64,000 bases of DNA from NCBI GenBank assembly GCA_036567945.1, contig DATCTM010000020.1:72-64071 (forward strand), read 5' to 3'. Within the stretch, counting starts at the first letter, position 1; each line of letters begins with the position of its first letter. The translations under genes were made by a program, and so were the position numbers. Source of the stretch: Vicingaceae bacterium. GTDB lineage: Bacteria; Bacteroidota; Bacteroidia; Flavobacteriales_E; Vicingaceae. The notes beneath the pieces were generated by a model. That model had not been told where the DNA came from and searched no databases. It saw only the letters and a program-made list of their open reading frames with translations. Positions 28,445 through 59,245 of the stretch are shown piece by piece.

Positions 28445-28570
28445 TGTTTATCAAGAAAGGTGGAGGGAATAGGCCCTGTGAAACCTTGGCAACCAACTAT
28501 AAGTCTTGCATAAGCGAGATTGGAAAATCGGTGCTAAATCCTATCCCGATAAATCGGGAAAAGATAAGTA
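28445..28570 (+). promoter_or_regulatory. SAM-I (S-box) riboswitch aptamer
   Basis: TTATCAAGAAAGGTGGAGGGAATAGGCCCTGTGAAACCTTGGCAACC...GGTGCTAAATCC...GATAAG matches the SAM-I core. P1 pairs 28445-28452 with 28563-28570. It sits upstream of methionine synthase. Confidence 0.88.
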
Positions 28571-42774: not shown

Positions 42775-43464
42775 TTATTCCAAAATTTTTTGTTGAGCCA
42801 ACTTCAAGGCATTTTGAAATTGTTCTTCTTGATTGATATGTGTATTATCTAACACAACAGCATTTTCAGCTTGAATAAGTGGGTTTTCTGTCCTACTGGT
42901 ATCATCACCATCACGAGAAACAATATTTTTCAGTACCTCATCGTAAGAAATATTATCTCCCTTAGCTTTGAGCTCTTCATACCTTCTTTGAGCTCTAACT
43001 TCAAAATCGGCAGTCATAAAAATTTTCAGTTCTGCATCAGGAAAAACTACAGAACCTATATCTCTCCCATCCATTACCAATCCTTTATTCTGTCCCATTT
43101 TTCTTTGCAATTCTACCATTTTAGTTCGTACTTGTTTTACTTTGGCTATTCTGCTTACTAAACTAGAAACTTCAATGCCTCTAATTTGTTTTTCTACATT
43201 TTCATTATTAAGACAAGTTTCTGAACTGTTTTTTTCTGCATTAAATGAAAAAGAAACATCAATGTTGTCCAAATCATCAATTAATTTTTTTTCGTCAAAA
43301 AAATCTTCTCCAATATATCCTTTTCGGAGAGCATATAAAGCAACAGCTCTATACATTGCTCCCGTATCAATATAAATATAGTTTAGTGCTTTAGCCAATT
43401 GTTTTGCCAATGTACTTTTTCCGCAAGAAGAGTAACCATCAATGGCTATAATAATTTTTTTCAT
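42775..43464 (-). CDS. cmk: cytidylate kinase
   Basis: IAIDGYSSCGKST P-loop, DTGAMYRA and GRDIGSVVFP motifs. Confidence 0.9.
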   Translation of the reverse strand: MKKIIIAIDGYSSCGKSTLAKQLAKALNYIYIDTGAMYRAVALYALRKGYIGEDFFDEKKLIDDLDNIDVSFSFNAEKNSSETCLNNENVEKQIRGIEVSSLVSRIAKVKQVRTKMVELQRKMGQNKGLVMDGRDIGSVVFPDAELKIFMTADFEVRAQRRYEELKAKGDNISYDEVLKNIVSRDGDDTSRTENPLIQAENAVVLDNTHINQEEQFQNALKLAQQKILE

Positions 43465-43496
43465 GTGTTTATATTTATTTATTTTTTATCGGACAC

Positions 43497-43557
43497 ATGG
43501 AACTCCCTTTATAATTATACTTCTGTGTGAGAATTTTTTACTCATGGTCGTTTCATT
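43497..43557 (-). repeat. bipartite conserved element, copy B (upstream of cmk)
   Basis: On the minus strand: AATGAAACGACCAT-N36-GGGAGTTCCAT-N32-ATG(cmk). The 14-mer overlaps the porQ stop codon. Confidence 0.85.
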
Positions 43558-58704: not shown

Positions 58705-59151
58705 TTATTCTTCAACTACTTCAAATTTAATTATTGCATCTACTTCTTTATGCAATTTAACTTCAGCTTCATAAGCTCCTAAGTTTTTAATTGCATCTCC
58801 TTTCAATTTAATTAATTTTTTATCTAATACAATACCTGCTTTTTCGGCTGCTTCAGCAATTTGTATGGTATTGATAGAACCAAAAATCTTTCCATTCTCT
58901 CCAGCTTTAGCGCCAATTTTCAAAACAGTTTTTGATAATTTGTCTGCTGCTTTCTCTGCTTCTTCTTTAATTTTTTGGTTTTTAACTGCTTGTTGTTTTA
59001 AGTTTTCTGCTAAAACTTTTAAAGCAGATGGAGTAGCTATTTTAGCCATTCCTTGAGGAATAAGGAAGTTTCTGCCATAACCGTTTTTCACGGTAACAAC
59101 ATCATTCTTAAATCCTAAGTTTTCTATATTTTCGTTTAATATGATTTTCAT
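58705..59151 (-). CDS. rplI: 50S ribosomal protein L9
   Basis: MKIILNENIENLGFKNDVVTVKNGYGRNFLIPQG is the canonical L9 N-terminus. Start taken at ATG 59151, not 59196 as in the ORF track. Confidence 0.93.
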   Translation of the reverse strand: MKIILNENIENLGFKNDVVTVKNGYGRNFLIPQGMAKIATPSALKVLAENLKQQAVKNQKIKEEAEKAADKLSKTVLKIGAKAGENGKIFGSINTIQIAEAAEKAGIVLDKKLIKLKGDAIKNLGAYEAEVKLHKEVDAIIKFEVVEE

Positions 59152-59183
59152 CTGTATATTTTTTAATGTTATTAAATTGTCAG

Positions 59184-59245
59184 ATGGAACTCCCATAATG
59201 TTTCTCTTTACTTTAAGAGAGACTTCAATTTATGGTCGTTTCATT
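59184..59245 (-). repeat. bipartite conserved element, copy A (upstream of rplI)
   Basis: On the minus strand: AATGAAACGACCAT-N37-GGGAGTTCCAT-N32-ATG(rplI). Both blocks are identical to copy B. Confidence 0.85.

Follow-up and report, generated by a model that had tools for sequence, protein, structure and literature searches.

Results

Two copies of a short repeat upstream of rplI and cmk

The window, as we call the whole stretch of 64,000 nucleotides (nt) from a Vicingaceae bacterium that was analysed here (assembly GCA_036567945.1, contig DATCTM010000020.1), contains two copies of a short repeat element, each placed directly before a gene start: copy A before rplI and copy B before cmk. Both copies lie on the minus strand, and all box and element sequences are given as read on this strand, which is the gene strand. 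The genes on either side are co-directional, as the first-pass annotation of the window had described, and NCBIfam equivalogs identify them as S18 and L9 (rpsR and rplI) around copy A and as PorQ and Cmk (porQ and cmk) around copy B.

The same annotation had reported a bipartite motif, and its boxes, spacers and distance to the start codon were all recovered. In copy A, the 14-mer of box 1, AATGAAACGACCAT (59245..59232), is followed by 37 nt, the 11-mer of box 2, GGGAGTTCCAT (59194..59184), 32 nt and the ATG at 59151. In copy B, the same 14-mer (43557..43544) is followed by 36 nt, the same 11-mer (43507..43497), again 32 nt and the ATG at 43464. An exact pattern search of the window found each box at these two places only. 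A match to box 2 with one mismatch at 1051 lies within a coding sequence and has no box 1 near it. The covariance model R1, built from the family as described below, also found copies A and B and nothing else in the 64 kb.

Similarity between the copies reaches beyond the boxes to ATGAAA hexamers that border both units on each side. The features are as follows, all on the minus strand.

59232..59245: box 1 of copy A, AATGAAACGACCAT, made up of a single base of the flank, the target's left copy and the first 7 nt of the element
59239..59244: left ATGAAA of copy A, the former Met-Lys start of rplI and now an orphan; the empty site in seven relatives (L001-L007) is AGAAAA ATGAAA ATT
59152..59238: element proper of copy A, 87 nt, CGACCAT...ATACAG, delimited by the 93-nt gap of alignment A1; R1 score 65 bits, E 6.6e-11
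59203..59220: variable hairpin P2 of copy A, UCUCUU-AAAGUA-AAGAGA, seen as fold and as inverted repeat
59181..59194: extended box 2 of copy A, GGGAGTTCCATCTG, the 'splint' inside the element; helix P1 is formed by GG..GUU with the left junction, and helix P3 by CAUCUG with CAGAUG at the right junction
59149..59154: 3' strand of P3 in copy A, CAGATG, the last 3 nt of the element plus the rplI start codon
59146..59151: right ATGAAA of copy A, the working rplI start (Met-Lys), where the L9 equivalog begins
43551..43556: left ATGAAA of copy B; its TGA is the porQ stop and its ATG the orphaned former cmk start (ATG AAA CGA CCA TGA)
43465..43550: element proper of copy B, 86 nt, CGACCATGAG...AAACAC, delimited by alignment A2; R1 score 87.6 bits, E 1.5e-15
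43493..43507: extended box 2 of copy B, GGGAGTTCCATGTGT; CAUGUGU pairs with ACACAUG (43468..43462), an inverted repeat of 10 nt that is 90% complementary
43459..43464: right ATGAAA of copy B, the working cmk start

The register of the boundaries of copy A is ambiguous inside the duplicated hexamer. Its orphan ATG opens a four-codon open reading frame (ORF), ATG AAA CGA CCA TAA, and its left AAA together with the following C forms the 5' strand of P1. In both copies box 2 runs on as CAT(C/G)TG, the complement of the CA(G/C)ATG that includes the start codon; where one copy has C and the other G, a change on the pairing side compensates. The copies are different sequence variants, CATCTG/TAA in copy A and CATGTG/TGA in copy B. 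The distance of 32 nt to the ATG is identical in both because that ATG is part of the repeat unit.

Empty and filled sites in near-identical strains

The rplI locus was compared with contigs that encode an identical L9 protein, which came from marine metagenomes and from one NCBI metagenome-assembled genome (MAG; GCA_002746095.2). The rpsR-rplI spacer is 37 nt long in 7/7 of these contigs, compared with 130 nt in the window. Alignment A1 of the window with the seven relatives has one clean 93-nt gap bounded by ATGAAA, and the sequence on both sides of it is identical. The empty site is AGAAAA-ATGAAA-ATT, and the window has AGAAAA-ATGAAA-CGACC...ATACAG-ATGAAA-ATC. No copy of the element was found in the seven 20-kb rplI loci of these contigs.

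The cmk locus was reached through the neighbouring 125-aa protein, as the exact Cmk had no match in the assembly index. Among ten near-identical contigs (alignment A2), two have an empty site, seven are filled like the window and one has tandem copies. In the empty site (L016 and L017), GAAGA-ATGAAA-AAAATT, the porQ stop TGA overlaps the cmk ATG as ATGA. Each insertion adds 92-93 nt, which corresponds to an element of 86-87 nt plus a second ATGAAA. The copies at rplI and cmk are independent insertions of a short non-coding multi-copy repeat of Bacteroidota. The first-pass annotation had made its interpretation depend on finding the conserved blocks upstream of rplI and cmk in close relatives, and they are missing from all seven contigs at rplI and from two of ten at cmk.

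At the cmk site of L010 (5586-5830), the resident copy carries a 47-nt nested insert inside box 2 (GGGA[AACGCAAGTTCGTGAATACAATTTTAAAAAAATAATAAGGAATGAACAA]TTCCAT) and is followed in tandem by a second, different copy. The cmk copy of L011 has a 3' end, CAACAG, that mismatches its CATGTG and looks recombinant.

A covarying fold that joins box 2 to both junctions

The first-pass annotation had predicted a hairpin in each spacer and a helix between the two boxes that closes around it. Minimum-free-energy folds and inverted repeats of the window copies show both spacer hairpins (UCUCUU/AAGAGA in copy A, UUCU/AGAA in copy B) and the pairing of box 1 with box 2. On the sense strand the element forms a long irregular hairpin, in which P1 consists of AAAC/GUU, a tandem G.A/A.G, CC/GG and AUGA/UUAU and leads into the variable hairpin P2. 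A further helix, P3, pairs CAUSUG of box 2 with CAS-AUG at the right junction and includes the start codon in every copy.

When 91 distinct copies were folded with RNAalifold, P1 (AAC/GUU and CC/GG around the tandem G.A/A.G) and P3 (CAUSUG/CASAUG) were recovered. With AUGA/UUAU and P2 added, 91% of the cells in the same 91 copies are paired, compared with about 40% when the partners are slid. We then aligned 127 matches to R1, divergent copies included, and 90.3% of the cells are paired, compared with 30-46% for slid partners. Both sides change in 14 of the 21 pairs, and the observed covariation was reached by 0/500 shuffles. The closing helix is thus supported across the family. The variable pair of P3 is CG in 61 matches, GC in 43, AU in 4 and UA in 1, and divergent copies carry the P3 variants CATATG/CATATG, CATTTG/CAAATG and CATAC/GTATG. 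P1 covaries between subfamilies, as CGACC/GGGAG, as CGAGCC/GGCGAG with an extra G-C pair, and as CATCC/GGATG, in which the G.A tandem is replaced by A-U/U-A; the first base of the element covaries too (AAAU...AUU). G.U is the commonest state at three pairs, and the fold is specific to the sense strand.

Because box 2 (GGGAGUUCCAUSUG) pairs with the left and the right junction, it is complementary to the joined ends CAS + ATGAAA + CGACC. Once integrated, the element has its left junction held by the 5' half of box 2 and its right junction by the 3' half, and the two helices meet at ATG^AAA. Terminal inverted repeats (TIRs) were searched for and none were found, the only inverted repeats being P2 and the internal block-junction pairings P1 and P3; the two ends, CGACCATGAG at 5' and ...TATAAACAG at 3', show no complementarity.

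A dispersed family in Bacteroidota

Genomes, one per species, were scanned with the pattern CGACCATRA-N25-45-GGGAGTTMCATSTG, from which the flanks were left out on purpose and for which about two chance matches are expected. The scan found at least 113 loci in at least 47 assemblies, and 46 of the 47 assemblies listed are labelled Bacteroidota. Among the matches listed are Prolixibacteraceae, Draconibacterium, Mariniphaga, Saccharicrinis, Carboxylicivirga, Vicingaceae and several Flavobacteriales MAGs, and cultured carriers include Maribellus sediminis, a Geofilum isolate and Draconibacterium orientale DSM 25947. The one non-Bacteroidota match among them, in a GC-rich Nitrospina, has no flanks and looks like chance. 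One Prolixibacteraceae MAG holds at least 47 of the listed loci, and 56 copies were found in these loci with a looser pattern. No match was found in the viral contigs (0 matches) or the plasmids scanned.

The hexamers recur although they were outside the search pattern. Of 128 copies in the listed loci, 113 have ATGAAA as their left flank, and most of the others retain GAAA or AAA. The right junction CAxATG is followed by AAA in 95 of 109 copies. The left copy of the hexamer tends to lose ATG and hold AAA, and the right copy holds ATG while its AAA drifts; this pattern of decay fits P1 holding the left AAA and P3 holding the right ATG. Unit length ranges from 89 to 110 nt. Tandem arrays in which units share one ATGAAA occur in L024, L076 and L114, and sister subfamilies that begin with ATGAAACGAGCCATGA, ATGAAACATCCATGA or ATGAAACGAACATGA were found in the same arrays.

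Near-identical copies in Draconibacterium orientale (L036, 373-474) and Maribellus sediminis (L062, 3658-3759) share the same 24-nt upstream flank, which may reflect an old orthologous insertion or a recent intergeneric exchange. Along the 3.16-Mb contig CAXXMN010000001.1 (loci L022...L129), the orientation of the element is plus at 50-130 kb, minus at 280-1750 kb and mostly plus at 1888-2907 kb. This resembles a replichore effect; a second contig is patchy, and the signal is confounded by gene orientation. GC skew of the element strand is positive in 77/106 cases, but this strand also carries 76% of the residues of neighbouring ORFs, which makes the comparison of strand with replication uninformative. 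In the consensus tail of the Prolixibacteraceae copies (for example L109, 3985-4078), the reverse complement of CTGTTTATAATTTTG contains TAATTTTG, which fits the Bacteroidota -7 box TAnnTTTG. On this reading of the consensus the box points antisense, toward the upstream gene, and it is absent from both window copies.

Gene context and target choice

In 69 of the 108 resolvable copies of the listed loci, an ORF of at least 60 codons starts exactly at the right-hand ATG. In a further 11 the next feature is another copy, and non-genic ATGAAA sites account for about 28. As background, an open frame of at least 60 codons starts at 28% of the ATGAAA hexamers that these loci contain in total. Nineteen of 20 downstream proteins scanned match Pfam, and the families are unrelated; the downstream genes include DnaN, RmlD, a DEAD-box helicase, MFS, OmpH, LptC, a sulfatase, MeaB and a LytTR regulator. 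The simplest reading of the bias toward gene starts is insertion specific for the hexamer, followed by loss of the copies that disrupt genes.

The element also alters the apparent starts of genes. In copy A it supplies an in-frame ATG at 59196, which lengthens the rplI ORF by 15 codons (MGVPSDNLITLKNIQ; 59152-59196, minus strand), and in L011 cmk is called at 242 aa with a start inside the element. Such false upstream in-frame starts can mislead gene callers, and the insertions lengthen 'intergenic' regions so that they resemble leaders. In a Draconibacterium MAG (L039, 6613-6707, minus strand), an element without its tail has an internal ATG (in CCATGAG) that heads a 223-aa ORF. The ORF begins with MRKFFIHTSMIMMGVPS, followed by a hydrophobic stretch that ends in Cys, an apparent exaptation as the N-terminus of a lipoprotein-like protein.

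Candidates rejected

Several candidates for a coding, catalytic or autonomous form of the element were set aside. An internal ORF (MRKSF...) with an ATGA stop/start overlap fails because CATGTGA and CATCTGA put a stop in box 2 and because lengths vary between 89 and 110 nt. A hammerhead-like CUGA...GAAA has no stem II, is lost in the CATGTG variants, which have no CUGA, and has no Rfam match. Sequences in the loci examined that carried only the left end (LE) or only the right end (RE), and so might have marked an autonomous partner, were degenerate minis or sister subfamilies. The tail-less copy of L039 was considered as a transposase-bearing version and is a deletion fused in frame to the lipoprotein gene. 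The Bacteroidetes RAYT (REP-associated tyrosine transposase; REP, repetitive extragenic palindrome) of subclass 2.6 was rejected as a source, as the REPs listed for it are GC-rich GCTAG hairpins and the boxes do not occur in the tables and supplements of that paper (PMC6006769).

Discussion

A mobile repeat specific for ATGAAA

Our data indicate that the element before rplI and cmk is a mobile repeat specific for ATGAAA and not a leader, and we put the probability of this at about 0.8. It is best read as a new non-autonomous mobile element that is TIR-less, dependent on structure and specific for ATGAAA. Insertion at a Met-Lys start leaves the old ATGAAA upstream as an orphan, which in both window copies opens an ORF encoding MKRP and a stop, and rebuilds an intact ATGAAA directly before the unchanged gene, preceded by the A-rich tail of the element. 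Copies stand at exactly 32 nt from the start because insertion recreates the ATGAAA start at the end of the element.

How the element is moved can be proposed tentatively, at somewhat less than even odds. Family-wide conservation in a selfish non-autonomous repeat mainly reflects the needs of copying, and therefore the fold most likely marks both junctions. A structure-specific enzyme acting in trans on this fold would have its site of cutting and joining inside ATGAAA, and the unit would travel as a single strand or by way of its transcript. In the host mRNA the element would be a passenger rather than a dedicated regulator of rplI or cmk. It may plausibly dampen or uncouple translation, because the start codon is predicted to be sequestered by P3 and because porQ and cmk no longer overlap at ATGA.

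Several observations weigh against a mobile element of this kind. Many columns of the first alignment were set by the search pattern, which by itself accounts for part of the invariance of the boxes in it. The consensus folding energy is -18.3 kcal/mol as RNA, whereas DNA parameters give only -3.8 kcal/mol, a weak fold that follows from the G.U pairs on which P2 depends; the energies that favour RNA weaken a purely single-stranded-DNA model and leave a function at the RNA level possible. The genome of the window itself has two copies in 64 kb, a count that covers the window only. The element is not a classical MITE (miniature transposable element with inverted repeats), because it has no TIRs. 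In the 8-kb flanks of the 113 listed loci no transposase or recombinase was found, and clustering of the 881 flanking ORFs gave SusC/SusD/FecR/ECF-type paralogues only. Element-dense regions searched with Pfam hold ordinary genes (fimbrillin, fucosidase, GDSL lipase, ECF sigma factor, outer membrane protein), and no long LE...ORF...RE version that shares the ends was present among the loci examined. No excision product or circle was observed, and precise deletion between the ATGAAA repeats could in principle give the same presence and absence.

A possible role in the host mRNA

A less probable explanation is that the element is a mobile repeat whose fold is kept for a function in mRNA, with the splint setting the two ATGAAA copies side by side. 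Ribosomes that end at the upstream gene or at the MKRP mini-ORF would re-initiate at, or be shunted to, the real start, or else the fold would tune access to the start codon or be an RNase processing site. Translation in Bacteroidota begins without a Shine-Dalgarno sequence and is sensitive to structure near its start, and the start codon lies inside P3 in every copy. The specificity of the fold for the sense strand, the three pairs at which G.U is commonest and a stability far greater as RNA than as DNA all point in the same direction, and insertions are often found within operons whose stop and start formerly overlapped, as in porQ/cmk. About a quarter of the copies, however, have no ORF behind them, sister strains do without the element, P3, whose loop measures 21-24 nt, has marginal thermodynamic stability, and RNA function alone does not explain the specificity for ATGAAA. 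A role at the RNA level and mobility are compatible and not mutually exclusive.

Relation to IS200/IS605, REP and other known elements

We consider it unlikely that the element is an HUH (Y1) derivative, that is, a unit resembling PATEs (palindrome-associated transposable elements) or REPINs that is moved in trans by an IS200/IS605-type TnpA or a RAYT. Insertion would then occur 3' of ATGAAA, the element's own ATGAAA would be the cleavage site of the right end, and box 2 would guide both sites. Members of IS200/IS605 and PATEs, which are moved by the Y1 TnpA in a 'peel and paste' manner, resemble the element in being TIR-less, in inserting 3' of a short motif, in a strand-specific structure, in internal guide nucleotides that pair with the cleavage sites and in their circle-junction logic. 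The element indeed has no TIRs, a strand-specific hairpin and insertion after a fixed short motif, the duplication can equally be read as target plus element end, and a stretch inside the element complements the two junctions and covaries with them. Bacteroidetes have Y1 subclasses of their own (PMC6006769).

The differences are that the element has a single long hairpin instead of two similar subterminal ones, a guide 3' and not 5' of the hairpin, a target of 6 nt and not 4-5, identical left and right cleavage motifs, and G.U-rich helices that favour RNA, the fold being weak with DNA parameters. No tnpA or tnpB partner was detected beside the copies, and no Y1 gene adjoins any copy in the 8-kb flanks or the element-dense regions. 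REPs and REPINs moved by RAYTs (TnpA-REP) are also short, structured, high-copy repeats that are presumed to be mobilised in trans by a single-copy enzyme, and in them, as in the element, repeat and structure co-evolve. REPs have a GTAG-type foot (GCTAG in subclass 2.6, whose GC-rich hairpins are unlike the element), are GC-rich, lie mostly after genes and have no ATGAAA target or link to start codons. The copies examined have neither such a foot nor a GC-rich hairpin next to a RAYT gene, and there is no HUH gene beside them.

Bacterial MITEs that are co-transcribed with genes, such as Correia/NEMIS of Neisseria, ERIC/IRU, RUP and MITEAba12, share with the element a length of about 100 nt, a non-coding nature, a multi-copy state, insertion polymorphism between strains, a short flanking duplication, a hairpin in the transcript and a position in 5' regions from which the expression of the next gene can be altered. 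Target duplication, many copies and insertion polymorphism were all found here. Unlike these MITEs, the element has no TIRs, uses the fixed 6-nt target ATGAAA instead of TA or variable duplications, has an internal block complementary to both junctions, and had no related full-length insertion sequence near the listed loci.

An apparent likeness to integron attC sites, whose bottom strand is folded for IntI, is judged by eye. It includes the layout R''-unpaired spacer-L''...variable hairpin...L'-R', the AAC/GTT core, a length of 57-141 nt, a middle conserved in structure and not in sequence, a boundary between A and C of AAC and a composite first arm. In contrast to attC, the copies are scattered single sites at gene starts in ordinary operons and not cassette arrays next to intI/attI, ATGAAAC/GTTCCAT is unlike RYYYAAC/GTTRRRY, there is an extra 30-nt tail with P3, and the structured strand is the sense strand. 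Rickettsia palindromic elements are likewise small mobile repeats that survive at genes since they are compatible with expression of the host gene; they lie in frame inside ORFs and are translated, whereas our element stays outside the ORF through duplication of the start.

A stronger version of the mobile-repeat reading is that the element guides itself: GGGAGUUCCAUSUG would pair both with its ATGAAA target and with either end of the element, and the RNA or single-stranded DNA of about 90 nt would set its own excision and its insertion at Met-Lys starts. We regard this as decidedly unlikely. If true, the element would found a new class of TIR-less micro-transposons directed by a guide, perhaps passing through RNA and parasitising an unlinked enzyme in bacteria in the manner of short interspersed nuclear elements or bridge RNAs. 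We know of no documented transposition system that combines a tiny TIR-less repeat, a 6-nt start-codon target and ends that covary with an internal block, and we give a minority chance to a new mechanism behind the internal-guide logic.

Improbable readings: a dedicated leader or a chance resemblance

The first-pass annotation had favoured a structured RNA leader, or a two-site operator, belonging to rplI and cmk. Part of this stands, as the fold is conserved and covarying, the helix between box 1 and box 2 is real, and both copies occupy 5' untranslated positions of co-directional genes. A riboswitch, a ribosomal-protein autoregulatory leader or an operator dedicated to these two genes is nevertheless very improbable. 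The loci are polymorphic, the same sites being without the element in strains with identical or near-identical proteins, and among the matches listed about 46 other genomes have the element before unrelated genes and at ATGAAA sites outside genes, with at least 47 loci in one genome, and in tandem arrays. The annotation had itself named missing blocks in close relatives and dozens of copies in random contexts as outcomes that would contradict its reading, and both were observed. Rfam 15 was searched with the window at gathering thresholds, and with both loci and consensus-like copies at E<=10; no relevant family came up for the element, and neither Flavo-1 nor a ribosomal-protein leader family matched. 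The open-access full-text literature, searched also with the box sequences themselves, yielded no description of it.

A chance resemblance or a recent local duplication, which might be suggested by the two copies in the window and by the 23/100 shuffles that give at least two matches to the 14-mer at up to two mismatches, can be dismissed, not from window statistics but because the bipartite unit recurs across the family, with the exact 14-mer and 11-mer at fixed spacing and the same flanks in more than 110 loci of 46 Bacteroidota-labelled assemblies listed, and the window copies themselves differ in variant.

Wider significance

The target ATGAAA is the commonest way in which genes of Bacteroidota begin. 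Dozens of genes in a genome have gained the same structured 5' region with the start codon in a helix, which, in a phylum without Shine-Dalgarno-led initiation, amounts to a natural experiment in translational control. At rplI and cmk, presence or absence of the mobile repeat tells apart marine Flavobacteriales strains that are otherwise near-identical.

Other features of the window

A sub-threshold match to the Pseudomonas small RNA P26 (58994-59053, plus strand), antisense in rplI, scores 22.7 bits against a gathering score of 36 and is almost certainly due to chance. A single Rfam family exceeds its gathering score in the window, the SAM-I riboswitch aptamer RF00162 at 28445-28570 on the plus strand (79 bits, E 6e-17).

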